This document shows positions 2,301-38,157 of a stretch of 40,988 nucleotides of DNA, piece by piece. The notes beneath the pieces are model-generated. The model was given only the letters and a program-made list of their open reading frames with translations, was not told the DNA's origin and ran no database searches. The stretch comes from a virus. Lineage: Duplodnaviria; Caudoviricetes. The stretch covers positions 1 through 40,988 of the IMG/VR virus record IMGVR_UViG_3300024284_000006, one strand, 5' to 3'. Made by a program: the position numbers and the translations under genes. The first letter of the stretch is position 1, and the number at the start of each line of letters is the position of its first letter.

Positions 2301-2366
2301 TTGTTTGCCAGGGTTTTTTGTCGTATAATACCCCACATAGGACAGCCCTTCGCGGGCTGTTTTTTT
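2301..2366 (+). promoter_or_regulatory. Sigma70-like promoter with promoter-proximal AGGACAGCCC terminator
   Basis: TTGTTT-17-TATAAT (2324-2329), 9 nt, then AGGACAGCCC-TTCGC-GGGCTGT-TTTTTT. Confidence 0.75.
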
Positions 2367-2383
2367 ATTTGTAAGGAATTTAC

Positions 2384-3166
2384 ATGAATCCTGCGAACTC
2401 TCAAGAAGCTCTTGCCCAGTTACAACAGATACAATCTCAGGCTCAGAATCCTAACGACATTCTTGCAAACCAACGTCAACAGTTGGGAGTTAATGCCGCG
2501 AATGAGACCGTGACTGGTCTGCGTGGCGCTATAAACAATACGACACAACTGCTGAAGCAAGTCGCCCCTTCTGTTATGGGACGTACAGGCAATTCTTTGG
2601 TCACGAGTGCGCAGGCTGGCCGGATTATCCAGAATGAACAGGCTCCTATCTCACAGAACTTGGCTGATCAGGGACAACAATATAGCCAAGCCGCCGAGAA
2701 CTTAAACAAATTGGAATCACAAGCAGGACAGGCTGCAAGCGGGATTTACCAGGGGCAGCAAGATAAGTTGAGTTATGCACAGAACTTGTACAATACGCTG
2801 TATCAGAAGGAACGGGACGCTCAGCAAGCAGCCCAGGCTGAAGCAAATCGACAGGAGCAGATTAGGCAGTTCAATGAGCAGCAGGCTGCGAGTCAGAAAG
2901 CAGCGACTTCTGCTTCCGCGAGTAACTCTCCTAACTGGGCCCAATTACTATCTTCGGTTATGCCTACACCAAAGTTTATAGGTAACGATGATCTTCGCGG
3001 TCGTTTGGCGTATGCTGCCCAAAAAGAGGGAAACCAAGATGCGGCTATTGCTTTGAAATATGTAGGTAATGACGGCAAATACTACCTGGATCCTTACGTC
3101 ACTAACCCTTCTATCATCAAATCACTTAACGCTGTTGGTGCTACTAATGTGTGGAAGCAAAAATAA
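2384..3166 (+). CDS. Putative ejection/internal virion protein (Gln/Ala-rich, helical)
   Basis: 260 aa, Q/A-rich coiled-coil composition, AAGGA RBS, positioned after the nozzle gene. Confidence 0.55.
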   Translation: MNPANSQEALAQLQQIQSQAQNPNDILANQRQQLGVNAANETVTGLRGAINNTTQLLKQVAPSVMGRTGNSLVTSAQAGRIIQNEQAPISQNLADQGQQYSQAAENLNKLESQAGQAASGIYQGQQDKLSYAQNLYNTLYQKERDAQQAAQAEANRQEQIRQFNEQQAASQKAATSASASNSPNWAQLLSSVMPTPKFIGNDDLRGRLAYAAQKEGNQDAAIALKYVGNDGKYYLDPYVTNPSIIKSLNAVGATNVWKQK

Positions 3167-5154
3167 TGGGTACACTCATCGGTGATTATTTTGTAGAGAA
3201 GGGGCAAAACATTCCGTCTAGTTCGGCCGGTGTCACTAAACAACAAACACCAGCAAAAAAGAAGCCTGGGGGGCTCGGGGGGCTCTTAAGTGCTGTGGCG
3301 CGACCTTTTAACCAGTTACTTATTGAACCGACTGTTTCTGCCACTAAACAATTAGCAGCCGAAGTTACAGGAAACAAAGTCGCTGAAGTGAACGCTAGAA
3401 AAAACTTATTCGGTGGTGCTAAAACCGCTGAGGATGCCTTGAAGAACATTGCCGGTAACGCTGCTCAAGTTGGTGCGACTTTTGTGGCACCCGGAGCCAC
3501 AGGTATCGGCTCAAAAATTGTACAGGGAGCAAAGGCCGGAGCTCTAGCCGGGGGTGGACAAGCCCTTGCAAACCATGAGGATGTACTTAAAGGTACGCTC
3601 GGGGGGGCCACTATTGGCGGCTCCACCAGTGGGATTTTAAGTAAGGTACTTAAGAGTAGTGGACCCAAGACCTCCGCTAGCAACTCGTTTCTTAAGAACC
3701 TAACAACGCAAGGTCAACAAATGCAGGCCAGAGGGCTTGGGATTAGCGGTGGCGCAAAAGTCGCCGGCAAAGAGCTTGCACCTCAAGATACCGAGAGAAT
3801 GCTAAATGTACTGAAAAACGAAGGTATTCAGCCGGGCAATGCTAACAGTGCCGCACGAGAGCTAAACGTAAAACTCAAAACATATGGACAACAGATAGCG
3901 GATCATTTTAAAACCAATAACGCTCCTTTGCACCCAGAGGACACAAAAGCTATAGCATCCAACTTTATTGGGGGTTTAGGGACAACTGATCCAAGTGTCT
4001 TAAAACAGGCTCAGATTCTGGCCAATGATTTACGGAAAAATGTTAAAGATACCAAGACTTTATGGGAGTTCAGAAAAACCCTTGATAGCAAGATACCAGA
4101 TACTAAATTTATGGATGCGGCCACATCTAACAAAGTGACTGCTCTCAAAGCAATGCGGGAATATATATCAAAGGAGTTAGGGGACACCCCTGGGATGCAA
4201 GGGTATCATAATTTGTCGGAGATCAAACCATTTTTGGGTAAAGGTATGCGCGAGTTGAATCAACCCAGCGGAGGAGTGATCGGTCGTATAGTTTCAAGCG
4301 GGCCGGCCCAAAAGGTCGAAGCAGGGATAGGTAAAAACGTAGAGAGATTAGGTAAAATAGGGGACTTGCCCGTCGAAACGACTCCGTCAAGTTCAAGAGA
4401 AGGCTTTTTGAATAGAATGCTATATAAAGCCGCTGGGAGTCGTGCCGCACCAGCCGTTGTAACCGAAGGGGTAATGAATAATCGTACCGATCCAATAAGC
4501 CAAGACCAATCTAGTGCGGATCTAGTGCCCTCGCTTGACTTGGCACCCAGTTCTAATCAGTCTACACAGCCTTACAATGAAAAAACTACTCAAAGCTCAG
4601 ATCCTTTCGCTCCCGAAAATGTGCCGAATCTAGTCGGGTTAATACTCTCACAGGGAGGGACGCAAAAAGATGTTGCAGAATACCTAGCAAACGTAGAGCT
4701 ATATCAAAAACTTACAGCTTCTTCCCCCAAGTCTAAGATCGGTGTTGTGAGTAGTCAGAATTATGCGAATGCGTTAAGTGGCTCTCAAAGCATTCAGGCC
4801 TTGAGAGATAAACTGACACAGAATCCTTCTCTTCTGACAAAAAGTGCTATACCTGGGGGTAGCCTGCCCATCATTGGAGGTTACATTAAGAACATTAGTG
4901 GCACTGGCGAACTAGATGCGTTGGCATACAATATTGCTGATAAATACCTAAAACTTACGACAGGCGCAACAGCTACTGATGCTGAGATTAAAAATACGGC
5001 CACAAAATTGATGCCCCGGGCAGGAGATAGCCCAGATACTGTCAAACTTAAGCTACAACAGCTTGAGGATTACTATAATACGATCATTGGACAGGCAAAT
5101 GGTCAAACAAATGATGCAGGTATCCAAGATATACTAGCTAATAATGGATCATAG
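3166..5154 (+). CDS. Putative large ejection/DNA-transfer protein
   Basis: ~662 aa with G/A-rich amphipathic segments typical of podoviral ejection proteins; TAATG coupling at 3164-3168. Confidence 0.55.
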   Translation: MGTLIGDYFVEKGQNIPSSSAGVTKQQTPAKKKPGGLGGLLSAVARPFNQLLIEPTVSATKQLAAEVTGNKVAEVNARKNLFGGAKTAEDALKNIAGNAAQVGATFVAPGATGIGSKIVQGAKAGALAGGGQALANHEDVLKGTLGGATIGGSTSGILSKVLKSSGPKTSASNSFLKNLTTQGQQMQARGLGISGGAKVAGKELAPQDTERMLNVLKNEGIQPGNANSAARELNVKLKTYGQQIADHFKTNNAPLHPEDTKAIASNFIGGLGTTDPSVLKQAQILANDLRKNVKDTKTLWEFRKTLDSKIPDTKFMDAATSNKVTALKAMREYISKELGDTPGMQGYHNLSEIKPFLGKGMRELNQPSGGVIGRIVSSGPAQKVEAGIGKNVERLGKIGDLPVETTPSSSREGFLNRMLYKAAGSRAAPAVVTEGVMNNRTDPISQDQSSADLVPSLDLAPSSNQSTQPYNEKTTQSSDPFAPENVPNLVGLILSQGGTQKDVAEYLANVELYQKLTASSPKSKIGVVSSQNYANALSGSQSIQALRDKLTQNPSLLTKSAIPGGSLPIIGGYIKNISGTGELDALAYNIADKYLKLTTGATATDAEIKNTATKLMPRAGDSPDTVKLKLQQLEDYYNTIIGQANGQTNDAGIQDILANNGS

Positions 5155-5163
5155 GAGGACATT

Positions 5164-5340
5164 ATGAACACGATTAAGAAAACCGGCACATTTCACGGTA
5201 AGAGCAACAAACTCGGTGGTGGTGGCAGATTTGCTCAAATGGAAGCCAAAGGCATGAGCGGTGGCCTGGCTGCCTTTATTGGTCGCAAACTCTATGGCAA
5301 GAAAAAGATGGTCAAGATGGCTGCAAAGGCCAAGAAGTAG
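5164..5340 (+). CDS. 58-aa highly basic Lys/Gly-rich protein
   Basis: AGGAGG RBS; MNTIKKTGTFHGKSNKLGGGGRFAQMEAKG...KAKK; not in the ORF track. Confidence 0.7.
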   Translation: MNTIKKTGTFHGKSNKLGGGGRFAQMEAKGMSGGLAAFIGRKLYGKKKMVKMAAKAKK

Positions 5341-5357
5341 ACTCGCTTAATGCGAAA

Positions 5358-5513
5358 TCATTCGTCATCGTCGTCTTCATTATCCCCGGATTTATTTCGT
5401 TTCAGCCCTTGACCTTCTAGCATGCTGTCCAAGACGACACAGATTATTAGGCCAAGCCATGTGAAAAACCACCAGTTAAATAACAGGCCCACTAGGTAAA
5501 CAAGAGTTATCAC
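5358..5513 (-). CDS. 51-aa membrane peptide with acidic tail
   Basis: GTG start after AAGGA; hydrophobic ITLVYLVGLLFNWWFFTWLGLIICVVL then ...NEDDDDE; lies downstream of a consensus promoter. Confidence 0.55.
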   Translation of the reverse strand: MITLVYLVGLLFNWWFFTWLGLIICVVLDSMLEGQGLKRNKSGDNEDDDDE

Positions 5514-5540
5514 TGCGGCTATCCTTTTAAACTAATATGG

Positions 5541-5569
5541 ATTATACCATGTGGATAACTATATGTCAA
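5541..5569 (-). promoter_or_regulatory. Consensus sigma70 promoter with a DnaA box in the spacer
   Basis: TTGACA-17-TATAAT on the minus strand; TTATCCACA at 5550-5558 (minus). Confidence 0.8.
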
Positions 5570-5576
5570 TGGCATT

Positions 5577-5604
5577 TTGACGTTCTTAATAGACCTGCTA
5601 TAAT
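5577..5604 (+). promoter_or_regulatory. Sigma70 promoter for a short non-coding RNA
   Basis: TTGACG-16-TATAAT with extended TG; no convincing ORF downstream. Confidence 0.7.
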
Positions 5605-5610
5605 GAATGC

Positions 5611-5790
5611 AGTCTTTGGCCAGGCGGGTAAAAGCCCCTAATTGTGTAAGGGGCTTTTTGTTTGCTTTCTGGCCAGGCGGGTAAGTTGATCTTGATGCTC
5701 TTGTGATAAGCGCCAGGACTCACCCGCCAAGTGAAAAGCAACAAAAAACGCCGAGGATATGTTCATATCACTCGGCGCTGTGCCTGATAG
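5611..5790. ncRNA. Convergent sense/antisense small-RNA locus
   Basis: Promoters on both sides; bidirectional terminator 5630-5658; 15-nt direct repeat TGGCCAGGCGGGTAA (5617, 5670); long hairpin 5655-5748; minus-strand terminator 5743-5777. Confidence 0.6.
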
Positions 5791-5801
5791 GTATTATAAC
5801 A
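5743..5801 (-). promoter_or_regulatory. Extended -10 promoter with promoter-proximal terminator (variant AGGCACAGCGCC)
   Basis: TGtTATAAT (-10 at 5798-5793), 7 nt, then AGGCACAG-CGCCGAG...CTCGGCG-TTTTTT. Confidence 0.65.
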
Positions 5802-5803
5802 CG

Positions 5804-6037
5804 TTAACTTAGGAGGCGGCGGGTTTCGTCGTTGAGGTTTTTGGCTTGTTCGGGGTAGGCTTTGTAGAAGTCTACTTGGTTTTTTTGGAGCATCTCTTTG
5901 CGGTGGCGGACCTTCATATCTTCGCGGCCGGCACGGGCAGCAGTTTCGTTGGGTTTGATGATCTCGGCTGAGATGTCATCGCCGTAGATGATGCGACCTG
6001 ATCTAATAACTGCTCTTTTTTTAGTGGGTTCAATCAT
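5804..6037 (-). CDS. Hypothetical protein
   Basis: 77 aa, AAGGAG RBS, last gene of the chaperonin operon. Confidence 0.7.
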   Translation of the reverse strand: MIEPTKKRAVIRSGRIIYGDDISAEIIKPNETAARAGREDMKVRHRKEMLQKNQVDFYKAYPEQAKNLNDETRRLLS

Positions 6038-6044
6038 TACTATT

Positions 6045-6272
6045 CTACTCCTTAGGATTAAGGCGGGCCATCATTTTTTCGCGTTCGTAGAGGGCGGTTT
6101 GTACGGGGTCATAGGGGTCAATGATTTCGCTTACTGGTTCTTCTTTGACCGGTTTATCCACCTTCTCTTTTACGGCTTGTTGGAGAGATTTGATCTGTTT
6201 TGTGAGGTCGCCTAGTTTGTAGCCGAGAGTGAAGGACGCTAGGAGGGAGAGGAGCCAAATGAGATAAGTCAT
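6045..6272 (-). CDS. Small membrane-anchored protein
   Basis: Start MTYLIWLLSLLASFTLG (TM segment) overlaps the upstream stop (ATGA). Confidence 0.65.
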   Translation of the reverse strand: MTYLIWLLSLLASFTLGYKLGDLTKQIKSLQQAVKEKVDKPVKEEPVSEIIDPYDPVQTALYEREKMMARLNPKE

Positions 6273-6388
6273 CCCAGTAGTCCATGTACAATAACCTTGC
6301 CACAAATAGTGCATTTGAAGCGCTCTTGGGTCAGAGAATAACTGGTACACAGATATCTGTGAAGCCCAAGTTTACACCTCCAGCTCAT
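6269..6388 (-). CDS. 39-aa Cys/His-rich peptide (possible zinc binding)
   Basis: MSWRCKLGLHRY...KCTICGK; fills the gap between groEL and the next gene, with ATGA coupling. Confidence 0.5.
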   Translation of the reverse strand: MSWRCKLGLHRYLCTSYSLTQERFKCTICGKVIVHGLLG

Positions 6389-6390
6389 AG

Positions 6391-7971: not shown

Positions 7972-7972
7972 A

Positions 7973-8215
7973 TTACTCCTTGTTCTCTACTATTTCTATC
8001 TTTTCTAAAGAGTTTGTGCCCATAACGTCCATCCATAGTTCCATTAGTCGCTTGGACGGCATAGGGGTTTTGTTCTTTAGGGCCCTAACCATTTCGGGGG
8101 TACACAGTATTTTTTCTGGTTCGGCGGAGTTGACCCTTAGAAACTCACAGTACATGCGTACTAGGTCTTGGAATGTCAGGGTAGGTTTTTCGGTTAGGTC
8201 GAGATTGGCCATCAC
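7973..8215 (-). CDS. Hypothetical protein between groES-like and groEL
   Basis: 80-aa ORF coupled on both sides. Confidence 0.6.
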   Translation of the reverse strand: MMANLDLTEKPTLTFQDLVRMYCEFLRVNSAEPEKILCTPEMVRALKNKTPMPSKRLMELWMDVMGTNSLEKIEIVENKE

Positions 8216-8592
8216 TGCTCCATTCCGAAGGAGCCGGCGCCGTCACTGTGGATGTTTTGGGCGGAGCTTTCGGGGTCATCTTCTGCTATAAGGCTCGTTA
8301 ATTTTACGAATGCGAACTTCTCGTTGCCCTTTTGGATGATGTTGCCACGCTCGCTGAGAGCAGTCCAGTAGACTTTGCGGCCGATTTTGCTTTCCCAATA
8401 CTTGTAGAGTTCGTCGAGCTCTTTGCGCGCCATAAAGGAGTTCTCGAAACTGAAGGACCAGAAGCCAAAATAGTTGAACTTGTCTGGAAGGGCGACAAGA
8501 ATGCCACACTCTGCGGTGTCTTTGCCGTTTGGATCACCAAAGGGACCGGGGTCTTCTAGTTTGATTTTTGCTAGGTCGTTAAGCGCTTGCAT
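8212..8592 (-). CDS. Divergent GroES/Cpn10-like co-chaperonin
   Basis: MQALNDLAKIK...GILVAL...KIGRKVYW...GNEKFAFVKLTSLIA parallels the GroES strand order with an insertion; upstream of groEL. Confidence 0.6.
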   Translation of the reverse strand: MQALNDLAKIKLEDPGPFGDPNGKDTAECGILVALPDKFNYFGFWSFSFENSFMARKELDELYKYWESKIGRKVYWTALSERGNIIQKGNEKFAFVKLTSLIAEDDPESSAQNIHSDGAGSFGMEQ

Positions 8593-8691
8593 GGTACCTC
8601 TCAACTGTATAAGCTAGGGCGCCGATAACCGCAAAGCTTGACGCCCTAGATGATAAAGTTGAAGTCTTTGCGGCTAGTCTCATTACCGGAG

Positions 8692-8722
8692 ATTATACCA
8701 CGAACTAGCCGTATGTTGCTAG
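8692..8722 (-). promoter_or_regulatory. Chaperonin operon promoter overlapped by CTAGC-N8-GCTAG palindrome
   Basis: TAGCAA-18-TATAAT with extended TG; palindrome at 8705-8722. Confidence 0.65.
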
Positions 8723-8746
8723 TCGGCATCTGGAATACGTTCCAAA

Positions 8747-8794
8747 TGTGGTAAAATAGGGCTAGTAGGACAGCCCTTCCAAGGGCTGTTTTTT
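8747..8794 (+). promoter_or_regulatory. Lysis operon promoter with promoter-proximal AGGACAGCCC terminator
   Basis: TGTGG-TAAAAT (8752-8757), 9 nt, then AGGACAGCCCTT-CC-AAGGGCTGT-TTTTT. Confidence 0.75.
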
Positions 8795-8814
8795 ATTTGT
8801 AAAGGAGAAAATAT

Positions 8815-8922
8815 ATGCTTCAGGTAACTGACAAACGTAAAAAAGAGACGCGTATCAACCCGGATACTGGCAAAAAGGAAGTCCGGTACGAGGGTGACTT
8901 CTTTTGGGTGGAGGTAAAGTAA
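8815..8922 (+). CDS. 35-aa microprotein
   Basis: AAGGAGA RBS; MLQVTDKRKKETRINPDTGKKEVRYEGDFFWVEVK; TAATG coupling to the next gene. Confidence 0.65.
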   Translation: MLQVTDKRKKETRINPDTGKKEVRYEGDFFWVEVK

Positions 8923-10401: not shown

Positions 10402-10402
10402 C

Positions 10403-11128
10403 ATGAATCAACAGCAAATTTATCAAAACTGGAAGCCGGGAGTGTTGGGGCATCACATAGATATCGACAATGCCTATGGTGCGCAGTGTGTAGACGTGGA
10501 CCTAAGCTATGGAGAGGCTTTGTTCCCCGGAGTGGCGTGGTCGACCGTGTTTCCACCCGTAGCGAGCGCCAAGCTACTGGGTTCGCATCATAACGATACG
10601 TATTTTGAGTGGATCGAGAACGATCACAATAACCCAAACCAGCTACCGCAACAAGGAGATATCTTGGTTTGTGACTCGACCCCGCAATCTGGCTATACTA
10701 ACCCTTACAGTAACCCAGATGGCCATACTGGGGTAGTAGATAGTGCTGACTCCTCTGGTTACACCATCTTGATGCAAGACGGCTCAAACCCGGGCGGTAG
10801 TGCATTCTTGCAGCACCAGGCATGGCGATACCGACCAGTACTTGGGTGGTTGCGCCCGCGCCTATCGTCGACTCCTGCGCCCGCGCCTACTCCATTGGGC
10901 AAGAAGCTGTTCCTTCCGGCGAGCGTGTTACGGTGGCGAGTGTATCGTGTAGGTGGACCATGGACAGTCGGGAACGAGATTGCATTTCTGTGGCCTTCTC
11001 AGTTTCCCCCGGGGCTTACGTACACGATTGAAAAAACGCTTGCCCCGAACTTCTATCAGATTACTACTCAAATGTTTGGTACGGTGGCCATATATGCCGG
11101 CCCCGATACTGATGCACAAATAAGTTAG
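10403..11128 (+). CDS. Endolysin, CHAP-domain amidase
   Basis: DIDNAYGAQCVD (catalytic Cys), PQQGDILV, DGHTGVV (His), LGWLRP; Pro linker and C-terminal binding domain. Confidence 0.9.
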   Translation: MNQQQIYQNWKPGVLGHHIDIDNAYGAQCVDVDLSYGEALFPGVAWSTVFPPVASAKLLGSHHNDTYFEWIENDHNNPNQLPQQGDILVCDSTPQSGYTNPYSNPDGHTGVVDSADSSGYTILMQDGSNPGGSAFLQHQAWRYRPVLGWLRPRLSSTPAPAPTPLGKKLFLPASVLRWRVYRVGGPWTVGNEIAFLWPSQFPPGLTYTIEKTLAPNFYQITTQMFGTVAIYAGPDTDAQIS

Positions 11129-16114: not shown

Positions 16115-16315
16115 TCATGAGCCATACCGTTCCCGTAGACCTTTTTTGGCAGCTTCTTTTGCCCGGTCTCTGTTAGCGGCGAAGCCTTTGTTTGGGTTTT
16201 TGACTTTTCCACCCTTGCGCCCAATCTCTTGGTAGACTTTCCGTACTTCCTCAACGCTGCCATACTTGGCAATACGGCTTTTCCACCACGGTGTATCGTA
16301 ATCACTTGTTGCCAT
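16115..16315 (-). CDS. KGG-repeat (general stress/Con-10-like) small protein
   Basis: EIGRKGGK...GFAANRDRAKEAAKKG. Confidence 0.75.
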   Translation of the reverse strand: MATSDYDTPWWKSRIAKYGSVEEVRKVYQEIGRKGGKVKNPNKGFAANRDRAKEAAKKGLRERYGS

Positions 16316-16505
16316 TTTTCTTGCCTCTTCTGGAGATTTTCCCGCCTTTGGCACCGGCGATTCGGGCGAGCTCACGGTTGGCGTAGAAGCCACCGGTGTG
16401 GCCGTTTTTGCCTCCAATTGCTCCAATGTTGACAAAGAAATCGTCTCCGTACCTTTTCTTAATAGTTGCGACGGCGGTGATTGCGCCTGTTTTGGTTCCT
16501 GGCAT
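16302..16505 (-). CDS. KGG-repeat (general stress-like) small protein
   Basis: GGAGG RBS; MPGTKTG...IGAIGGKNGHTGGFYANRELARIAGAKGGKISRR. Confidence 0.8.
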   Translation of the reverse strand: MPGTKTGAITAVATIKKRYGDDFFVNIGAIGGKNGHTGGFYANRELARIAGAKGGKISRRGKKNGNK

Positions 16506-16858
16506 CATTCCTCCATTTCTTCTAAATATTTGCTTCCCTTTTTGTTGTTGCACGCTGCGCAACAGGGCTGTAGGTTTTTGAGTGAGTAGCGTAGTTCTGG
16601 ATGTCTGCTGCGACTTTTGACATGATCGAGTGTGAGTTGTGACCGGGTGAGCAGCTTGCCGCATATGTAGCAAAAGTAATAGGGTGCTTTGTTTTGCTGT
16701 AGCCACCTTTCTCGGGTGTGCATCCAAAGCTTGAAATGCTTTCCCCTGGGACTAAGCGGCTTGCGTTTTGTCCAGGGACAGTGTAGGGAGGTGTGATTAA
16801 CCGACCCGCATTTCTTGCACCCTTTTGGTCTTAGACTGCTGTAGGCGGGCACTGGCAT
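16505..16858 (-). CDS. HNH endonuclease with N-terminal zinc knuckle
   Basis: CKKCGSVNHTSLHC; CYICG...LDHVKSRS...NLQPCCAACNNKKG. Confidence 0.85.
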   Translation of the reverse strand: MPVPAYSSLRPKGCKKCGSVNHTSLHCPWTKRKPLSPRGKHFKLWMHTRERWLQQNKAPYYFCYICGKLLTRSQLTLDHVKSRSRHPELRYSLKNLQPCCAACNNKKGSKYLEEMEE

Positions 16859-19614: not shown

Positions 19615-19648
19615 TGGCTGGGGCGGAGGGATTCGAACCCCCGAATGC
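19615..19648 (-). mobile_element. attP core: 3' half of tRNA-Gln
   Basis: GCATTCGGGGGTTCGAATCCCTCCGCCCCAGCCA has a T-arm, acceptor 3' strand, G discriminator and CCA, typical of tRNA-Gln; no D or anticodon arm; about 125 nt from the integrase stop. Confidence 0.8.
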
Positions 19649-21973: not shown

Positions 21974-22003
21974 CTAGCATTATCCGGCTACATTTGATAT
22001 AAT
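21974..22003 (+). promoter_or_regulatory. Terminase operon promoter with CTAGC-N8-GCTAC operator
   Basis: TAGCAT-17-TATAAT with extended TG. Confidence 0.7.
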
Positions 22004-22199
22004 GAACGTAACGAATTAGAGACTTACGTGAGGCGTAGCTTCCCCTTCCTTTTAGCTACTCCTAGCACTTTGAGACATTAGATTGTCTCAATTCGTGTGG
22101 GACGTACCGCCAGCTGAATCATTGGTTTAAAAACAAACATGTTTCCCACATTTGGTACGTCTCACGTAGGTTTTTAATATACAGGCAGGAATCAGGCTC

Positions 22200-22589
22200 G
22201 TGATTGGCAAGAATGTATCTCCGGATGTAGGACGAAATACACAGTTTCAGCCTGGGCAGAGTGGCAATCCAGCAGGCAAGCCTAAGGGTGCTAAGCATCT
22301 TTCTACTTGGATTCAGGATATGCTCAACGATGAAGAGTTTGAGACGTATTTGCAGCATCCTACAAAGGGGTATGTGCCGTTTAAAGGCGCTCCTATTAAG
22401 GCTATTGTGCAGACAGCACAACAGAAGGCCGTGGCTGGTGATGATAAGGCTCGTGAGTGGTTGGCTAAGTATGGATATGGACAGAAGTTTGAGGTGGAGC
22501 ATTCGGGTGAGATTGCTACGGGGATTGCTGATCCGGTTATTGCGGCGGAGTTTGCTGAATACTTGAAGGGTAAGAAAAGTGACGGCTAG
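22200..22589 (+). CDS. Terminase small subunit-like protein (DUF5681-type N-terminus)
   Basis: TQFQPGQSGNPAGKPKG motif; upstream of TerL. Confidence 0.75.
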   Translation: MIGKNVSPDVGRNTQFQPGQSGNPAGKPKGAKHLSTWIQDMLNDEEFETYLQHPTKGYVPFKGAPIKAIVQTAQQKAVAGDDKAREWLAKYGYGQKFEVEHSGEIATGIADPVIAAEFAEYLKGKKSDG

Positions 22590-22740
22590 TCAAGAACAGA
22601 AGGTTCGTAAGTTGTTGGCACAGACTGCTAGTGGTGGCTATTCGGATATTCATGCCATAGACAGCAATGGCGACAAAGTTTTGTTTACTAGGCTAGATCT
22701 AATTGTTGAAGATCTAAAGACTATTCTGAATGAACAATGA
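22579..22740 (+). CDS. 53-aa hypothetical protein
   Basis: GTG-start ORF that bridges terS and terL; not in the ORF track. Confidence 0.45.
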   Translation: MTASQEQKVRKLLAQTASGGYSDIHAIDSNGDKVLFTRLDLIVEDLKTILNEQ

Positions 22741-24334
22741 GGACTTGATCGCTTCCACCCCACTGGCGTGGATACTTCTTAACAAGATGGTGAATGAGAA
22801 CCAGGAGCTGATTGAGTTTGACAATCACCGATTTATGATTGACTTCTACGCAGACCAGGCAGATGACATTGTGAGCCGTAAATCTGCGCAGGTAGGGTTT
22901 AGTGTCGCGGCTATCTTGAAATCGCTGCATGAGGCTCGATTTGGGCCGTGGAACATTATTTATGCATTGCCTACTAACAACGTGGTTGGGGATTTTGTAA
23001 AGCCAAAGGTCAATCCGTTGATATCCTCTAACCCTGCCATCTCTAGCATCGTACACGATGACTCGGTGAGTCTGAAACGCATTGGCGACCGCTTCATATT
23101 CTTTAAGGGTGGATTTAGTGACCGGGAGGCTATCTCTATCTCTGGAGATATCTTGGTGATTGACGAATACGATCGTATGCCAGATATGGGCGTAGTGAAC
23201 ACCTTTGATTCACGCTTGCAGGCTAGCAAGAATCCCAAGCGGTGGCGGTTCTCTAACCCTTCTCAGGTGGGATTTGGAGTGGATGGACTGTACCAAGATA
23301 GTAATCAGTTGCATTGGTTTGTGAAGTGCCACCACTGTGGGCATGAGTGGTATATGGAATGGGCGGCTACCGATGAACATGCACATTTTGTAGACCAGGA
23401 GCGCCGTATATATGCGTGTGGTAAGTGTCGTGGAGAGATCAGCGATGAGGATCGGCGAATGGGCAGATGGATTGCTAAGTACCCGAGCAGAAAGCGACAT
23501 GGCTATTGGTTTAGCCAAATGATGGCTCCGTGGGTTAGTGCTGATAGGATCGTTGAGCAGTTTGAGGAGAGCAATATTGAGTTCTTTCATAACTTTGTGT
23601 TGGGCAAGGCCTATACGCCTAGTGACATGATTGTTGACCGAGCTGCTATCTTGCGGGCTACGTCGCCGTCTAATATTGCTCGTGATCGGGTTGCTATTGG
23701 GGTTGACCAGGATGCCGGTGGCCAGTATTACGTGGCGATGACTGCTCAGGGAGTATTTGACCACGGATATGTTGACTCTTGGGATAAGATTGAGCATTTG
23801 AAGCTTATGTACAACGCGGTGGTTGTGTGCGATCCAAACCCTTACTCGGCCACTCCAAAGCAAATGGCTAACAAATATTCGGATTGGTATTTGTGCTATT
23901 TCAAGGCGTTGGATGGACTGTCGGCTGTGCAATGGAAAGAGAAAGAGCAAGTTGTGTATGCTGACCGCACACGGGCCATTGACATTGTGGCAAATGAGAT
24001 TGTGAACGCTAAGCTGCTGTTCCGAGAACGACCGTATGAGCTGGAGGATGTGATTGAGCATTGGCGGAATATCTACCGCACTACCGAGGAGAAAGACGAC
24101 GGACGGACTCGTAGTGTGTGGTTGAAGAAGGAGGGCAAGCAGTCTGATTATCCCTTTGCCATGACATATGCGCGAATTGGATTGAGCCAGTTGCTTGGTG
24201 GGGGATCTGAGTTTATTGAGCCAACACAGGCTAGCGAAACACAAGTGACTAATATAACGACCAAGGATGGCAACACCTTAACGGTTGACTTTAGAGACAT
24301 ATTAGAGGAGACGTGGGAGGCACAAGGTGAATGA
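22730..24334 (+). CDS. terL: Terminase large subunit (GpA-type ATPase)
   Basis: RKSAQVGFS Walker A, LVIDEYD Walker B, FSNPS, CxxC pairs, IGVDQ nuclease motif. Confidence 0.9.
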   Translation: MNNEDLIASTPLAWILLNKMVNENQELIEFDNHRFMIDFYADQADDIVSRKSAQVGFSVAAILKSLHEARFGPWNIIYALPTNNVVGDFVKPKVNPLISSNPAISSIVHDDSVSLKRIGDRFIFFKGGFSDREAISISGDILVIDEYDRMPDMGVVNTFDSRLQASKNPKRWRFSNPSQVGFGVDGLYQDSNQLHWFVKCHHCGHEWYMEWAATDEHAHFVDQERRIYACGKCRGEISDEDRRMGRWIAKYPSRKRHGYWFSQMMAPWVSADRIVEQFEESNIEFFHNFVLGKAYTPSDMIVDRAAILRATSPSNIARDRVAIGVDQDAGGQYYVAMTAQGVFDHGYVDSWDKIEHLKLMYNAVVVCDPNPYSATPKQMANKYSDWYLCYFKALDGLSAVQWKEKEQVVYADRTRAIDIVANEIVNAKLLFRERPYELEDVIEHWRNIYRTTEEKDDGRTRSVWLKKEGKQSDYPFAMTYARIGLSQLLGGGSEFIEPTQASETQVTNITTKDGNTLTVDFRDILEETWEAQGE

Positions 24335-24617
24335 GCTTGAGATTGTGTTTGTTAAGAAGCGGCAGATTGTTGTGGTGCCCGACAAGCGGTACAGGATACT
24401 TGTGACTTTGATACGAGCGGATCGGCCGCGGTATTGGAACTTCTTGTGTAATAACTGCGGCTCTAAGCTGGTTGAGTTGCAAAACCTTGAGTTGATTGGT
24501 GTTGATGATTTCTACGACCCACAGAATGTGCGCAATGATGGGATTGGGCGGCATTGCAAAGGGATATTGCCGGATGGGCTGCCTTGTCAGTATTCTTATT
24601 TCTTTCATGTGCAGTAG
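24327..24617 (+). CDS. Zinc-ribbon protein (Mu Com-like pattern)
   Basis: FLCNNCGSKL...HCKG..PC. Confidence 0.55.
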   Translation: MNELEIVFVKKRQIVVVPDKRYRILVTLIRADRPRYWNFLCNNCGSKLVELQNLELIGVDDFYDPQNVRNDGIGRHCKGILPDGLPCQYSYFFHVQ

Positions 24618-26400: not shown

Positions 26401-26444
26401 TGGTATAATGGACCGTAAGGACAGCCCTATGTGGCTGTTTTTTT
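26401..26444 (+). promoter_or_regulatory. Portal operon promoter with promoter-proximal AGGACAGCC terminator
   Basis: TGgTATAAT, 8 nt, then AGGACAGCC-CTATGT-GGCTGT-TTTTTT. Confidence 0.75.
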
Positions 26445-26485: not shown

Positions 26486-28609
26486 TTGGGACAGACCGAC
26501 CCATTTACCCAGCAAACGGATGTTTACGAAGAGGCTTTTACCGAGCTGTATAGAGAGCCGGAGCCTTTTGAAGAGCTTGATCTGGAGATGTCTGACGACA
26601 TGCTGGACAAGATGCTTATTAACTCTTTGGAGGCCGACCGGGCACACTGGAATAAGAAGCCGTGGAACTTGGAAGAGACGGATGTAAAGAACACCGCCTT
26701 TTTGTTTGGTGATCAGCTGAACGATAAGGACTTTTTGCGGACGGATACCAAGTATGTTGACAACCGACTATTCTCTTCTGCGCGGGCGATCTTGAGCTAT
26801 GCGACCGGACAGCTTGCTAAACCAGACATTACGCCCAGTAAAGGTGATGAGATTTATTTGAAGGGTGCGCGAGATATTGGCGCAGCTTTGTACCAGCACT
26901 CTGTTGATGAGGATGCTGACCAGAAGTTCCGGGCAGCCACACTTAATCTTATTACTCGTAAGCGTGCTTATCTGAAGCTCCGGTTTGACCCAAACATTGG
27001 GCTGAACGGAGATATTGTTACGGAGATTTGCAACCCTGAAGACGTGATCTTGTGTCGCTTTACGGGCTACTTGCAGAATCCAAAGAAGATTTATCACCGG
27101 TTGCGATGTAGCGTGGATGAGCTGTGTGCTCGCTTTCCTGACAAGAAAGAGGAGATCTATGCCGCTTTTTCTATCCGACGCGGAGTGTATTCACAGACCT
27201 CTCGGATGGTGACGTACTTTGAATGCTGGTTCACGTACATGGGCAATGATATGACACCCAAGGAAGGTGTCTGTTGGTTTGTTGCCGAGAAGCACTTGGT
27301 GCTGGATAAGATGCGCAACCCAAACTGGGTGTACTTGAGCAGCGACAAGAAGGAAAAAGAAGCCAACGTTATGTCGTTGCCTCCTAAGCCATTTGTTGTA
27401 TTCAATCATATCAATACAGGACACTCGGCTATTGATGAGACATGCTTGATTGAGCAAGCACTTCCCTTGCAGGTTGCTTTGAACAAGCGATTGCGGCAGA
27501 TTGGGGAGAACGCGGACTATGTGAACGGCCGGTGGGTGGCTAGCAAGAAGGCTTTTAGCCAAGAAGATGCTCGCAACTTAATTAACAAGGGTGCGCGTAC
27601 GGTTGCTATGGCCGACCGGGAAGACGTGTCGAATGCCCTTGTGAATGTGGCACCGAATCAGTTGGGAGCATGGGTTGAGAATACTGTATATGACTATCGC
27701 AATGAGATAGACGGCATGATGGGTACGCCGGCGCAGTTTAAGGGTACTGACCCGAAGAGTAACGACACCCTTGGCCGTGATTTAATGATTAAACAGCAGG
27801 CTGGCGCGCTTCAGGATGACTTAGTCCGTTCCATTGCCGTGTCTGCTGCTCAGTACTACACCATTAAGTTGCAAATGTTCCGAGTGTATTATACCGACGA
27901 CTATTGGTTCCAGACCAAGGGTGGTGATGGCAAGTATGAATTTATATTGATTAATGGTGACAAGCTGGACAGCAACGTGCGCGTTAGTGTGCAGACGGAT
28001 AGCACATTGCCTTTGGACAAAGCGAGTATTCGGGCAACGGCTATGCAGCTATGGCAGGCAGGCAATGCGATCGACTATAAGAGTCTCATGGAAGACTTGG
28101 GGTTGCCAAACCCAGATGTGCGCGCTGAACGCTACCTGAAGAGCAATATTGACCCTGTCGGGTATCTAAAGTCCATCGAAATGGATGATATTAACGCTGA
28201 GGCTGAGTCGGACATTCAGCTTTTGATCGCCAACAAGACGCCAGAAGAGCGTGATGATTACGACCAAGGGTACTTTGATTACTTTAATAAGTTCATGGCC
28301 AGTAACCGATTTGCTAAGCTGCAGGGTAAAGACCCGAAGGCCGCACAACGTATCACGATGTTCCTGATTGCTGTGCAACACGCCATGATGCAGAGCTTGA
28401 ACTTGCAAGAAAGTATGACCCCGCAACCACAGCCGGGCATGTCGCAAGATCCGAACGCTATGCAGCCTGGACAGCTGACTCAGGCCGGAGGCGCGCCAGC
28501 ACCTGGCGGCCAAGCATCCCCGCAGTTGCCACCTAATCCGCAGGCTCAAGTCCCAGCCGATGCAACTTCTCTGCCCCCAGCGGCAGCCCCACCAGTACCA
28601 ACACAATAA
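26486..28609 (+). CDS. Portal protein (podoviral type, long Q/P tail)
   Basis: ~700 aa between terminase and scaffold/capsid; helical; Q/P-rich C-terminus; start uncertain. Confidence 0.8.
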   Translation: MGQTDPFTQQTDVYEEAFTELYREPEPFEELDLEMSDDMLDKMLINSLEADRAHWNKKPWNLEETDVKNTAFLFGDQLNDKDFLRTDTKYVDNRLFSSARAILSYATGQLAKPDITPSKGDEIYLKGARDIGAALYQHSVDEDADQKFRAATLNLITRKRAYLKLRFDPNIGLNGDIVTEICNPEDVILCRFTGYLQNPKKIYHRLRCSVDELCARFPDKKEEIYAAFSIRRGVYSQTSRMVTYFECWFTYMGNDMTPKEGVCWFVAEKHLVLDKMRNPNWVYLSSDKKEKEANVMSLPPKPFVVFNHINTGHSAIDETCLIEQALPLQVALNKRLRQIGENADYVNGRWVASKKAFSQEDARNLINKGARTVAMADREDVSNALVNVAPNQLGAWVENTVYDYRNEIDGMMGTPAQFKGTDPKSNDTLGRDLMIKQQAGALQDDLVRSIAVSAAQYYTIKLQMFRVYYTDDYWFQTKGGDGKYEFILINGDKLDSNVRVSVQTDSTLPLDKASIRATAMQLWQAGNAIDYKSLMEDLGLPNPDVRAERYLKSNIDPVGYLKSIEMDDINAEAESDIQLLIANKTPEERDDYDQGYFDYFNKFMASNRFAKLQGKDPKAAQRITMFLIAVQHAMMQSLNLQESMTPQPQPGMSQDPNAMQPGQLTQAGGAPAPGGQASPQLPPNPQAQVPADATSLPPAAAPPVPTQ

Positions 28610-29584: not shown

Positions 29585-29588
29585 AATA

Positions 29589-29696
29589 CTTGCATTATCT
29601 GGCTAGGTGATATATCATGCAACTAAGGACAGCCCTTTATGGGCTGTTTCTTTAGTTGACCGCAGACAGCAGACAGCCTGGCAAAGGCTGTTTTTT
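29589..29696 (+). promoter_or_regulatory. Capsid promoter with operator and two tandem GACAGCC terminators
   Basis: TTGCAT-17-TATCAT; CTTGC-N8-GCTAG; AGGACAGCCC-TTTAT-GGGCTGT-TTCTTT, then AGACAGCCT-GGCAA-AGGCTGT-TTTTT. Confidence 0.8.
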
Positions 29697-29722: not shown

Positions 29723-30796
29723 ATGTCAGCGACTGCACAGAATGACAGGGTTAATAACATCACCCTGCAGGACTACAACTCCACTGTAGTCGACACTATT
29801 AGCAAATCTAGTGAAATCATGAGAGGTATTGTCTCTCGTCCGGACCGTTGGAACGGTCGAAGCTACAGCTCGCCGATTTTTACCAACAACTCGCAACTCG
29901 GTACGAGCTTTAAGGGTACGGAAACCTTTGACACCTCGATTGACTACAACACGCAGCAAATGACCTGGTTTCCGACTGGTTATGCACAACCTGTTGGTGT
30001 TTCGGTTGTGGAGCGCTCGATCAACTCTACACCGAGTGGCGTTGTTGACCTGTACAAGTCTTCGTACCAGTACGCACAGAACTCGATGATCACGGCGCTT
30101 GGCCAGATCTTCTACGGCTACGGCAACGGCAATGACTTTGATGGTCTGGGTGTGATTGTAGACGACGGTACGAGCACGGCTAGCTATGCTGGCTTGACCC
30201 GTGCTACCTACCCGACGATCAACGGCTACGTAACTGCTGCTTCTGGCGGTGTGCTTGATCTAGATCTGATGGCTGCAGCCGACGATGGCGCAAGCATCTC
30301 TGGTGATGAGTCTGAGACTCCGAACAAGATTATGGCTACTCAGAGCGTCTGGAGTTTGTACGAAAGCTTGCTGTCTCCGACGGTGAGCGCTCGATACGAT
30401 AGCCTTGGTGGATCGTTTGTAGACGGCTCGAGTGCACTTAACCAAAGTGTTAGCCAGAGCAATGCTCAATGGTTGAGGGGTGGTGCCACAAGCGTAAGCT
30501 TCCGCGGCAAGCCATTGATCCGCGACCAGAAATGCCCAACCACCCAGATGATTGGTCTGAACGACAAGTGGTTCCACTTCCGCAGCCTGAAACTTGAAGG
30601 TCTTGACCTAGTCGCTACCGAAGAGGACGTGACAGCTGGCGCCTACAAGCAATACAAGGTATCTGCCTTCCAGTTCCGCAAGCCACTAATGCCGGTGAAC
30701 CAACTGGCTGAAGTCGGAATCTTCGTTATGTACGGCCAGTTCTACTGCGAAAACCCCAACCGTAACTTTAAGATCACTGGGATCACGACAGTTTAA
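29723..30796 (+). CDS. Major capsid protein
   Basis: 357 aa after the scaffold; FDGLGVIVD, YAGLTRATY, GKPLIRDQKC and CENPNRN are typical of HK97-fold capsid proteins. Confidence 0.85.
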   Translation: MSATAQNDRVNNITLQDYNSTVVDTISKSSEIMRGIVSRPDRWNGRSYSSPIFTNNSQLGTSFKGTETFDTSIDYNTQQMTWFPTGYAQPVGVSVVERSINSTPSGVVDLYKSSYQYAQNSMITALGQIFYGYGNGNDFDGLGVIVDDGTSTASYAGLTRATYPTINGYVTAASGGVLDLDLMAAADDGASISGDESETPNKIMATQSVWSLYESLLSPTVSARYDSLGGSFVDGSSALNQSVSQSNAQWLRGGATSVSFRGKPLIRDQKCPTTQMIGLNDKWFHFRSLKLEGLDLVATEEDVTAGAYKQYKVSAFQFRKPLMPVNQLAEVGIFVMYGQFYCENPNRNFKITGITTV

Positions 30797-30822
30797 TAAG
30801 ACAACTCTAAGGAGAAAAAACT

Positions 30823-31566: not shown

Positions 31567-31593
31567 AAAGCCTAACCCACGGGAGAAAAAACT

Positions 31594-32190: not shown

Positions 32191-32202
32191 AAAGGAACAC
32201 CT

Positions 32203-32466: not shown

Positions 32467-32481
32467 TGAAAGGATGATGCC

Positions 32482-32745: not shown

Positions 32746-32754
32746 GAGTGCCAC

Positions 32755-33513: not shown

Positions 33514-33553
33514 CTAGCATTATTCGGCTAGCTCTTGTATAATGCGGGGTATG
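33514..33553 (+). promoter_or_regulatory. Promoter with CTAGC-N8-GCTAG operator and leaderless start
   Basis: TAGCAT-17-TATAAT (33538-33543); ATG 7 nt downstream at 33551 with no SD. Confidence 0.7.
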
Positions 33554-33778
33554 ACTTTAGAAGACCGCATTACTGAGGTAGAACAAAAATTTAATGAAAA
33601 ACAGGCAGAACGCGAAGAGTGTTTACAAGAAATGCTCCGGTTACAAGGTGAACACCGCGTGCTATTGTCTCTTTTGAACGAAAAGAAAGGAAGCGAGCCG
33701 GGGGAAACTTCGGCTTCTGTTCCTGTCTCTGATAAGGCAAATGTAATCGAGGCTACTGCAGCCGAGGAGAATAAATAA
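33551..33778 (+). CDS. Small coiled-coil protein
   Basis: MTLEDRITEVE...; probably leaderless. Confidence 0.65.
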   Translation: MTLEDRITEVEQKFNEKQAEREECLQEMLRLQGEHRVLLSLLNEKKGSEPGETSASVPVSDKANVIEATAAEENK

Positions 33779-34422
33779 TGGCTCTTGTTGGCCCAGGCGC
33801 AACACAACAAATTACCGAGGCACCGGCTCCTACACTGGAAGGTGCAAGTGAATACGAGTTTGTAACTATTTTGAACCCTCTACCAGATGATTTTTCTGTT
33901 CTGGTAGCACAAGATGTACCGGTGAATGTGCCGTATCTGACGAAAGATCAAGACGGAAACACACTGAACGAGGCGGAAGTCAACCGTACTTACGGTGTTA
34001 GCCTGCGCAACAAAGACTTTAAAGGCCGTAAGCACATATCGAACGCTACGACTATTAAGGCCGGCCAGACTATTAACCTCAAAGGTAACGAGGCACAAGT
34101 CGCGGTTCGACAATTGGTGAACGAGATCTTGCAGCGTGAGGGCAAACGGCGGCTGATGGCTGACCCTCATCTACGCCAAGAAGTAGAGGCGAGAATTATC
34201 AAGAACCGTGGCTCTGTACAGGAACTTATGGACAGAAACTTGCAGCCGATGCGCAACCAGTTGGACGAAGCAATTAAACAATCGAACGAGGCCCACGATG
34301 AAGAAGCCTTCCCCGAACTTAGACAGCCAGATCAAGGCCCAGGAACAGAAGCTGTCAATACTCCAGACTACGGTCAAAGCCAGCGAAAAAGAGTGGGCCG
34401 ACCGAAAAAGACAGATAGCTGA
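33778..34422 (+). CDS. Hypothetical protein with basic C-terminal KRVGRPKK motif
   Basis: 214 aa, GAGGAG RBS. Confidence 0.7.
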   Translation: MALVGPGATQQITEAPAPTLEGASEYEFVTILNPLPDDFSVLVAQDVPVNVPYLTKDQDGNTLNEAEVNRTYGVSLRNKDFKGRKHISNATTIKAGQTINLKGNEAQVAVRQLVNEILQREGKRRLMADPHLRQEVEARIIKNRGSVQELMDRNLQPMRNQLDEAIKQSNEAHDEEAFPELRQPDQGPGTEAVNTPDYGQSQRKRVGRPKKTDS

Positions 34423-35074
34423 CGATACCCAAGTTACCATTGAAGTTTCGAAGAAGGCGATAGCCTCAGAACTTCGTGCTGCCAAGAAAGAGCTGTTGGA
34501 AACCCAAGAAAAGGCCAAGAAGACAGCCCAAGAGTTTTTTAGGCACCGACAAGCGCAGGAAGATATAGTTTCTAAGGTCGAAGCGGAGATTGAAGATCTG
34601 CAGTACACCAAAAAAGTGCTTTTGCAGACCAATACTGATCTTGCTATTGAAAACAGGGAGCTTAAGAGTGCGATCACTGTATTACAGGCTGACAGCCAGA
34701 TGCTAAAAGAGGATGAGCGTGAACTGAACAAAAGACTTGTTGACTTACGGGAAGCTGAGAAGACACTTGCACAACAAAAGTCTGACTTAGACGCTGAAAT
34801 TGAAGATCACGAGAACGCTTTGGAGTCGTTTGTAGTTGAAGCTGACGCAAAAAGACAGCAATTGGAGCAAAGTATAGTGGCGTTGGAGCTCAAAAAGCAG
34901 GATCTTGCTAACGAGATCATTGAGAACAGGGCTCAAGACGATAAGGTAAGAGATAATTTGGCGCAGTGGGAACAAAAGCTTGCGGATTCAGATAAGAATT
35001 TGCGGATTCGGGAAGCGCGAGTCAATCAACAAGAGTCGGCGATAGCCCGCAACTACAACCTGCTTCAGCTCTGA
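34298..35074 (+). CDS. Long coiled-coil protein
   Basis: Heptad-rich E/K/Q/L sequence; probable start MKKPSP overlaps the upstream gene by 125 nt. Confidence 0.7.
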   Translation: MKKPSPNLDSQIKAQEQKLSILQTTVKASEKEWADRKRQIADDTQVTIEVSKKAIASELRAAKKELLETQEKAKKTAQEFFRHRQAQEDIVSKVEAEIEDLQYTKKVLLQTNTDLAIENRELKSAITVLQADSQMLKEDERELNKRLVDLREAEKTLAQQKSDLDAEIEDHENALESFVVEADAKRQQLEQSIVALELKKQDLANEIIENRAQDDKVRDNLAQWEQKLADSDKNLRIREARVNQQESAIARNYNLLQL

Positions 35075-35075
35075 T

Positions 35076-35123
35076 TGTGGTATAATGCAGGATAATAGGA
35101 CAGCCCTTCGCGGGCTGTTTTTT
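35076..35123 (+). promoter_or_regulatory. Promoter with promoter-proximal AGGACAGCCC terminator
   Basis: TGTGG-TATAAT (35081-35086), 10 nt, then AGGACAGCCC-TTCGC-GGGCTGT-TTTTT; hairpin identical to the copy at 2339. Confidence 0.8.
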
Positions 35124-35126
35124 GTT

Positions 35127-36710: not shown

Positions 36711-36711
36711 A

Positions 36712-37242
36712 ATGCCTCTTTCGTACCCTTTCCCTGATGCAACCTCTACGCTTAAAGGTAAGATACAACTTACCGGAGATTTAGGCGGTACTGCGGCCTC
36801 TCCTACAGTAGTGGGTGCGCAACAAGGAGTAATCTCTGCGGCTGCTCTTTCTACTTCGGCTATTACCTTAGGCTTTGCTTCTTCTACGAGTACATTTACG
36901 CTTTCGTCATCCCAAACCACTCCTACTCAAGTGACGGGACTCTCTATAACGGTAACCATTCCTGCTGGAGGACGTCGAATACGCGTCACTGCCTATACAT
37001 CATCCCTCTCACCAGCCAGTGGAGTTGCGCTGTTGACTATATGGGATGGAACGGTGAATGTAGGCACGCAATTACAGCAATATAATTCTGCGGCAAATAA
37101 TGGGGCGAATTGTCAAGTTATTATAAGCCCTGCCGCAGGGAGTAAGACCTACAACGTAGGTGTCAGCAACTCAGGCCTTAATACTACTACTGTATCGGGT
37201 TCTGCAACAAACCCATCTTTCATACTCGTGGAGGCAATATAG
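36712..37242 (+). CDS. Virion fibre-associated protein
   Basis: PDATSTLKGKIQLTGDLGGTAASPTV fibre motif. Confidence 0.65.
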   Translation: MPLSYPFPDATSTLKGKIQLTGDLGGTAASPTVVGAQQGVISAAALSTSAITLGFASSTSTFTLSSSQTTPTQVTGLSITVTIPAGGRRIRVTAYTSSLSPASGVALLTIWDGTVNVGTQLQQYNSAANNGANCQVIISPAAGSKTYNVGVSNSGLNTTTVSGSATNPSFILVEAI

Positions 37243-37604
37243 TGCCCTTATATGGAGGAATTAACCAACTTGGGCCTACAATCCCCTCGGTAGAGATTAC
37301 CGGTACGTCGCAGCAGGCTAGTGTGAACACGAAGTATCTGACTAACAATGCCTCGTTGGTCACTATTACGTTACCCGCATCCGCTAACATAGGGGAACAG
37401 GTGTTGGTACGTGGTAAAGGTGCCGGGGGCTGGAAGCTTGTCCAGAACGGCGGGCAAACTATCCATGGGGCTTCGGATACTACGACTGGAACGGGCGGTT
37501 ACTTGGCCTCCCAGACTTCCCGCGATACGGTGACTATCGAGTGCACTACGGCCAATACAGATTTCTTGATCATTGCTGGAAGAGGGACATTGACGTATGG
37601 CTAA
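37242..37604 (+). CDS. Small virion protein
   Basis: VTITLPASANIGEQVLV module. Confidence 0.6.
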   Translation: MPLYGGINQLGPTIPSVEITGTSQQASVNTKYLTNNASLVTITLPASANIGEQVLVRGKGAGGWKLVQNGGQTIHGASDTTTGTGGYLASQTSRDTVTIECTTANTDFLIIAGRGTLTYG

Positions 37605-38106
37605 TCTGATACGAGAAACTGGTAGAGGCTTTGCATCGAGCCTGACGGCTAATTCTTCGCTTTCTAATTCGACTGTTGAGACTACGCTGTTTAGTCAAAC
37701 TATATCTGGTGGTAAGATGGGTACGTCGAAAGCGCTTAAATTTACGCTCTATTGTAGCCTTACTACGCCCGCCCTTGCCGTCCCTACCCTTACGGTCAAG
37801 GTAAAGCTAGGGAGTACAAGTCTGACAGTAATGAGCGGTCTGTCGCTGGCCATAAGCCAGACGAACGCACCATTTAATGTGACGGGTCTTATCGTCAACA
37901 AGAGCGCCCCGAACGCGCAATTTACTTTCTCGCAGATAATCCAGCAATCGGCGTCTATACCGCTTGTCCTGACCTCGGCGCTCGCGGATGCAGACTGGAC
38001 GGTCGATACTACTACTGACCAGTTATTTGCCGTGACTGCCCAGTTCGGTAGTCTGAACGCTACCACTACCTTGACATTCCGCTACGCAGATATAGAATTA
38101 ACCTGA
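37597..38106 (+). CDS. Putative virion protein
   Basis: T/S-rich beta protein in the tail cluster. Confidence 0.55.
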   Translation: MANLIRETGRGFASSLTANSSLSNSTVETTLFSQTISGGKMGTSKALKFTLYCSLTTPALAVPTLTVKVKLGSTSLTVMSGLSLAISQTNAPFNVTGLIVNKSAPNAQFTFSQIIQQSASIPLVLTSALADADWTVDTTTDQLFAVTAQFGSLNATTTLTFRYADIELT

Positions 38107-38115
38107 TATTTATAG

Positions 38116-38157
38116 TATAATGCCTTTAGAGGAAAGCCCCCGCTTGGGGGCTTTTTT
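38116..38157 (+). promoter_or_regulatory. Promoter with promoter-proximal terminator (variant AGGAAAGCCCC)
   Basis: TATAAT, 8 nt, then AGGAAAGCCCC-CGCTTG-GGGGCTTT-TTT. Confidence 0.7.

Follow-up and report, generated by a model that had tools for sequence, protein, structure and literature searches.

The window, a 40,988-bp stretch of DNA analysed at its full length (IMG/VR record IMGVR_UViG_3300024284_000006), is a complete phage genome with direct terminal repeats at its ends, and its late genes are preceded by a repeated cassette in which a promoter is followed at once by a terminator-shaped hairpin. Our analysis indicates that a small, predicted zinc-ribbon protein encoded beside the terminase gene probably binds a GG..CC word in the nascent RNA and opens these promoter-proximal hairpins of the late genes. 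Pfam and PHROGs scans of 77 window open reading frames (ORFs) identified a terminase, a P22-like portal, a major capsid protein, a chaperonin, an integrase and a CHAP endolysin. The phage is temperate and podovirus-like, and TM7 phage DolZOral124_53_65 is among its relatives. The nearest named relatives by capsid protein were this TM7 phage (39%) and MW202566 (28%).

Six late sites on the plus strand shared one layout, consisting of a -10 box, 7-10 nucleotides (nt), AGGA[C/A]AGCC, a loop, GGCT and a T run, with the -10 boxes at 2324, 8752, 26404, 29613, 35081 and 38116. The first cassette (2324..2366), with the AGGACAGCCC hairpin, lies before a core virion-block ORF (2384-3166) and occupies the same site in relatives. 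The second (8752..8794) heads the operon that contains the CHAP endolysin gene (10403-11128), the third (26404..26444) precedes the portal gene (26486-28609), and the fourth (29590..29649), with a -35 TTGCAT, a 17-nt spacer and a -10 TATCAT, precedes the major capsid gene (29723-30796). The fifth (35081..35123) stands before an ORF starting at 35127, and the sixth (38116..38157), a variant with AGGAAAGCCCC, before an ORF starting at 38171. The -10 boxes at 8752, 26404 and 35081 are of the extended TG type. No further copy of AGGA[CA]AGCC was found in the window, and 200 dinucleotide shuffles of the window gave 0 cassettes, the 9-mer alone occurring at a mean of 0.5. Counted from the first base of AGG through base eight of the T run, the cassettes measured 28-30 nt.

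The first-pass annotation had described seven such sites, and all seven are present where it placed them, as is the second GACAGCC terminator-like hairpin that it had noted in the capsid leader (29672..29696, plus strand). The default product of about 30 nt that it proposed agrees with the 28-30 nt of the layout, its start and stop being predicted from sequence. Its 'lysis' site at 8767 does have the CHAP endolysin in its operon, at 10403, but the first ORF there is one of 35 codons at 8815, and no PHROG or Pfam match stood behind the labels 'ejection' (2384) and 'fibre' (35127). The seventh site, on the minus strand at 5785, comprises a -10 box, a hairpin and a T run (5743..5798). It probably falls outside the cassette family, because its stem differs, no gene follows it, the groEL operon has just ended with its last gene, and nothing was seen at this place in 14 relatives.

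To follow the cassette in other phages, 29 capsid relatives (64-86% identity) were collected by protein sequence alone. In each of the 29 capsid leaders, the end of the preceding gene was followed by a promoter, usually with a -35 box, and then by a GG-led hairpin, a T run and a Shine-Dalgarno (SD) sequence. Among the 25 distinct leaders, the -35/-10 spacing was 16-18 nt, the GG lay 7-10 nt past the -10 box in 24 (the remaining leader was mis-called by the script), and the promoter score reached at least 8 in 23, compared to 17% of shuffles. The hairpin and T run finished upstream of the SD sequence, with clear distance, in most capsid leaders. A regular expression requiring the GG picked up 70 late-strand cassettes in 14 out of 17 records, placed before portal, capsid, tail-block and lysis genes and numbering from one to six or more per genome. 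It was blank in G007, the TM7 phage and MW202566, and the cassettes of G007 were visible by eye. Two atypical matches were dropped, leaving 68 cassettes for the word analyses. The stems paired in register despite base changes, with the GG facing the T run (67 cassettes).

A pattern scan of IMG/VR returned 117 loci in 25 distinct contexts. Two unrelated terminators, each repeated, accounted for many of these, and 7 of the 25 contexts resembled this cassette family. Control DNA was taken from 40 tRNA-Gln loci of at least 6 kb (508 kb, host-like, taxa probably mixed), where a -10 box stood just upstream of 4 and downstream of 16 of the 168 terminator-like hairpins. The GG-requiring expression gave 6 loose matches, none repeated, in 119 tRNA-Gln loci (636 kb). 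Given this rarity, the cassette is no common form of promoter in these two sets of host-like DNA. A second copy of the 5' arm was observed past the T run in capsid leaders L132, L133, L134, L135, L138 and L139 and in the window at 29665-29696; its ability to pair with the 3' arm or the SD region suggests a read-through conformer or translational control.

The candidate antiterminator is a four-cysteine protein of 96 amino acids (aa), predicted to be a zinc ribbon and encoded on the plus strand at 24327..24617, directly after terL (22730-24334). The gene adjoined terL in 13/13 relatives that hold terL. It is likely transcribed from an ungated unit (21998..24334, plus strand), in which a TG-TATAAT promoter-like site at 21998 without a cassette is followed by a putative terS (22200-22589, assigned by position) and terL. 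Members of the family are 75-100 aa long, with four cysteines that are invariant or nearly so and with some 30-45 residues separating the cysteine pairs; the structure models were mainly beta (predicted local distance difference test scores of 89 and 83). The window's protein had 59 relatives at the 50% level. A portal scan reached distant phages (~30% identity), many of which carry a distant four-cysteine gene beside the portal gene, and the near and distant proteins aligned in hhalign with a probability of 82 and an E value of 1e-5.

No Pfam or PHROG family was found for the zinc protein, which also gave no sequence match in the PDB. Foldseek returned no fold match and the best VIA Z scores were 2.9 and 3.5, blanks that do not show a new fold. 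The sole match in a viral structure library was a relative of the protein itself, and Atlas matches were under 0.9. The zinc genes of the distant phages L339, L340 and L388 have their own -10 box 6-7 nt before the ATG, which suggests a leaderless mRNA in several distant phages.

The presence of this gene was compared with the presence of the cassette in two sets of records. The first set comprised 40 records with a capsid gene, in which capsid cassettes were scored by eye. A capsid cassette was present in 29/29 records with the zinc gene and in 0/11 without it; at the capsid gene of these 11, the promoter led directly to the SD sequence. Records G016 and G017 resemble the gene-less group in gene content, yet both carry the zinc gene, about 19-20 kb from the capsid gene, together with the single cassette found, at the capsid gene. 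Their sister on the portal tree, G022, has no zinc gene; it retains a word-like 5' segment, AGGCAGACAGCC, and lacks the 3' arm. When 91 protein clusters from 30 near-complete genomes were compared, the zinc family fitted the cassette pattern best, with automatic counts of 18/20 versus 0/10, and the two automatic misses were the window itself and MW202566, in both of which the zinc gene was located separately. The core genes 8212, GroEL, 6045 and 5804 were also tried as the co-varying factor, and none matched the cassette pattern.

For the second set, 32 of 80 capsid loci were chosen for record length, and two proved to be repeats, which left 30 new records. Both gene and cassette were found in 19, neither in 8, and 3 were discordant. 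The first-pass annotation had proposed looking in related phages for a gene that co-occurs with the cassette, and the four-cysteine gene was the only family with that pattern among the clusters compared. Its larger proposal, a distributed late switch operated by a phage-coded trans factor, is supported by the conserved layout, the paired stems, the rarity of the cassette in host-like DNA and the co-occurring gene.

The heptamer AGGACAG, which had been put forward as the conserved signal, turned out to be the word of the window only. Other genomes carried GGATAGCC, GGAAAGCC, GGAGTCCC, GGATTTCC or GGCAGCCC, so that each phage has its own word and the part kept throughout is GG...CC. Among the 68 cassettes, similarity of the cassette heads was 0.83 within a genome, 0.66 for the same gene across genomes and 0.65 for unrelated pairs, and none of 5000 permutations reached the within-genome value. 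The higher similarity within than across genomes therefore points to either a genome-specific partner or within-genome copying. GA-N3-CC was present in 51/68 cassettes and exact GAG(N)2CC in 5/68, and the words of the distant phages often contained GAGCC or AGCAGTCC. Two other readings of the word, as the CsrA-type motif ANGGA and as the T-box-type motif UGGN, were rejected from base counts.

The following sequence of events is the most likely. The host sigma70 enzyme would start about 7 nt past the -10 box, and transcripts would by default stop at the U run after about 30 nt. The zinc protein would meanwhile accumulate from the cassette-free terS-terL unit (promoter 21998), engage the 5'-terminal GG..CC word of the nascent RNA and keep the hairpin from closing. 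Since few bases separate the exit of the word from the polymerase and the stop point, the protein would probably act once the polymerase has paused at the U run, or would already be loaded on it. We infer that it activates rather than represses, because the 19 gene-less records with neither element (11 + 8) keep no hairpin before the essential capsid gene and because G022 keeps the 5' word without the 3' arm. Two features of the word favor recognition of RNA rather than DNA, namely its location in the 5' hairpin arm and its resemblance to GAG(N)2CC, the core selected by the phage Mu protein Com. On balance, we lean towards a wider account in which an entire lineage of phages of the candidate phyla radiation (CPR) would time the assembly of its virions with one protein acting at many promoters. 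This zinc ribbon, to which no solved structure comes close, would read a 7-9-nt 5' word and cancel terminators lying only about 30 nt from the promoters, and the system would grow by copying of one capsid cassette to at least six and be lost as a unit.

Several observations weigh against the proposed mechanism. Words were mixed within G011 and within G012, and specificity must therefore be loose. Zinc-protein distance did not follow word distance once genome distance was removed (partial rho 0.00, 13 genomes), and the gene after the capsid gene did track word distance (0.57, p 0.003, best of 21 tests). The 3 discordant records out of 30 were G034, G059 and G036. In G034 (86% complete), a clear zinc gene was accompanied neither by a capsid cassette nor by a gene-gating cassette elsewhere. 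G059 has at least six cassettes and no zinc gene was found in it; the record ends 260 nt upstream of the portal gene, the region usual for the zinc gene. G036 is a 57% fragment. Several phages with the zinc gene lacked a cassette before the portal gene. Many records in the co-occurrence sets were near copies of each other, and the trees needed only 2-3 independent changes, so the sign test cannot reach significance (2/2 independent pairs agree, p 0.5). A loose motif-free scan did not separate the groups, the counts being 53 sites in 344 kb and 33 sites in 267 kb, and a strict one overlooked known cassettes. No competing RNA structure was available in most cassettes, and the window's own zinc protein gave no match to PF10122 (Com).

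The main rival of RNA recognition is action on the polymerase or on DNA, in which the same protein would open the cassettes at +1 to +10 in the manner of Q or gp39 and the word would be a product of copying or a loading site. This would fit the absent covariation of protein and word, the mixed words in G011 and G012 and the very short time that a free RNA binder would probably have, and phage antiterminators acting on RNA polymerase are known (available text of PMC3351154 and PMC9388147). We nevertheless regard it as unlikely. Nothing was conserved by eye between -35 and -10, the word lies in the 5' arm of a hairpin and resembles the Com target, and a processive factor would need no cassette for each operon; two promoters of MW202566 carry the 5' word, there separate from the stem.

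It is improbable that there is no gate at all, with a hairpin so near the promoter failing to terminate and serving instead to protect the mRNA 5' end and to stop or dampen transcripts arriving from upstream. Protection of mRNA by 5'-terminal hairpins is well established, and the GG pairs with the T run, closing the stem almost to the 5' end. This explanation leaves out why the hairpin comes and goes with one far-off gene and why each genome has one word, and the gene-less phages use promoter-then-SD or terminator-then-promoter arrangements. Even less probable is a zinc protein that represses or acts post-transcriptionally, either promoting termination or, nearer to Mu Com, changing the stability or the translation of transcripts whose default is read-through. 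Com does act on translation (PMC6483171, available part), leaders L132, L133, L135, L138 and L139 repeat the 5' arm further downstream or have a hairpin that covers the SD sequence, and G034 retains the gene without a capsid cassette, but the 19 gene-less records have no intact hairpin before the capsid gene and the hairpin ends well before the SD sequence in most leaders. As the opener, an antisense RNA is very improbable, and so is a host factor, for instance a Com-like protein of the host; the first-pass annotation had allowed for an RNA as the trans factor. Cassettes without a detected zinc gene in G059 would suit such an opener, but no complement of the word occurred at a shared position in 11 genomes, the 5340-5800 region was not conserved, and cassettes were rare in host-like DNA.

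Other features of the window were recorded alongside the cassettes. Between the late and groEL operons (5599-5798) lie a two-way terminator and a convergent pair of promoter-hairpin units carrying a repeated TGGCCAGGCGGGTAA; the units are possible small RNAs and were not conserved in 14 relatives. In the leader of the 8212-8604/groEL operon (8614-8702, minus strand), a hairpin stands just before the SD sequence, and the 5' segment CCGCAAAG is complementary to its loop. Crossing stems of at least 7 bp were present in 11/14 genomes versus 8/140 shuffles, with both partners changing together, and the leader resembles a further RNA switch with two states, adjoining the lysis cassette back to back. 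The gene heading this chaperonin operon (8212-8604, minus strand) encodes a conserved 130-aa protein with no Pfam or PHROG match and Atlas scores of about 0.9 to Gp3-like and Pam3_Gp34 clusters. A 58-aa basic protein rich in K and G (5164-5340), at the end of the virion block and present in 11/14 relatives, is possibly DNA-condensing. Two long overlapping plus-strand ORFs (33778-34422 and 34208-35074) were both conserved in relatives, and two adjacent paralogous small proteins with KGG-like repeats are encoded on the minus strand at 16115-16727. Rfam gave no match in the window at gathering score, an Rfam E-value scan of 8560-8900 gave four matches, all sub-threshold, and ARAGORN reported no tRNA in the window.

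A tRNA-Gln 3' half followed by a terminator was observed after the integrase gene (~19615-19648, minus strand) and is likely the attP of a temperate phage. Its 32 bases were present in at least 120 metagenome loci, one being the window's own sequence, and Peregrinibacteria was named for 1 out of 10 proteins looked up beside the tRNA-Gln loci. We infer a host among the Patescibacteria (CPR) because of this flanking protein and the kinship with the TM7 phage. A prophage search of GTDB with the capsid protein and the capsid alignment found none, and a scan with the MW202566 capsid gave no match.

No description of the cassette, or of late-gene control in CPR phages, was found in the literature searched, which consisted of main texts without supplements and had subscription papers mostly outside its reach. 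If the proposed action is true, phage late antitermination gains a route beside Q-type and polymerase-binding factors, namely RNA reading at terminators near +1; an unannotated protein family acquires a function; and Com-like zinc ribbons extend from translation to transcription. The minimal part, about 60 bp plus the 96-aa gene with natural word variants, could be a tight switch for Saccharibacteria genetics.

Among known systems, the lambdoid Q arrangement is alike in having a host-type sigma70 promoter, a terminator and late genes in that order, with a phage protein proposed here for read-through. Q itself serves one cassette (PR'), relies on a DNA element (QBE) and a sigma-dependent pause, and moves along with the polymerase (PMC9388147, in the text available), whereas here there are from one to at least six separate cassettes per genome, a hairpin at about +1 and a 96-aa candidate. 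The Q families PF03589, PF06530 and PF06323 had no match in the 77 window ORFs and were not among the families listed for the 78 zinc-family members. When the 70 cassettes were inspected by eye, with no formal motif search, the stretch from -35 to -10 had no sequence in common and nothing like a -10 element stood past +1. By the family scans, the cassette system is not Q. Gp39 of Thermus phage P23-45 is likewise a small phage protein that gives read-through of intrinsic terminators, and we know of no repeated 5' word for it. It differs in that its target is RNA polymerase, whose pausing at poly(U) tracks it suppresses (PMC3351154, available text).

Com of phage Mu is a small four-cysteine zinc protein of the phage late region, as the candidate is predicted to be, with a target of GAG(N)2CC compared to GA-N3-CC here. 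According to the accessible part of PMC6483171, Com has 62 aa, activates translation by disturbing structure at the start site, and has the selected core GAG(N)2CC. The present system differs from Com/mom in its terminator-shaped hairpin upstream of the SD sequence and its protein of 75-100 aa. Hiding of the start codon or SD sequence in the Com manner was absent from the capsid leaders, where the hairpin and T run end upstream of the SD sequence; some capsid leaders have a further hairpin over it. Among 14 distant zinc-family members, 3 matched PF10122 weakly through the first cysteine pair (14.3-20.6 bits, cut-off 22.9, best E 3e-4), and several distant phages carry GAGCC in their words. The distant set aligned with Com in hhalign at a probability of 82 over 26 columns, out of register, with the first cysteine pair on the second pair of Com, and the near set at a probability of 6. 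By score, membership in the Com family fails; kinship with Com is possible.

HutP, BglG/SacY and ANTAR proteins bind leader RNA and prevent a terminator, as is proposed for the candidate; HutP begins at a 5' site inside the terminator RNA, which it destabilizes (PMC2425495, part available). These proteins differ in serving metabolic operons, in responding to ligands or signals and in their unrelated folds. The CAT, ANTAR and HutP domains had no Pfam match in the 77 window ORFs, and the main text of the review PMC12591593 contains neither 'phage' nor 'zinc'. As predicted from its layout and candidate protein, the cassette system resembles HutP in its proposed action and Q in its arrangement and belongs to neither.

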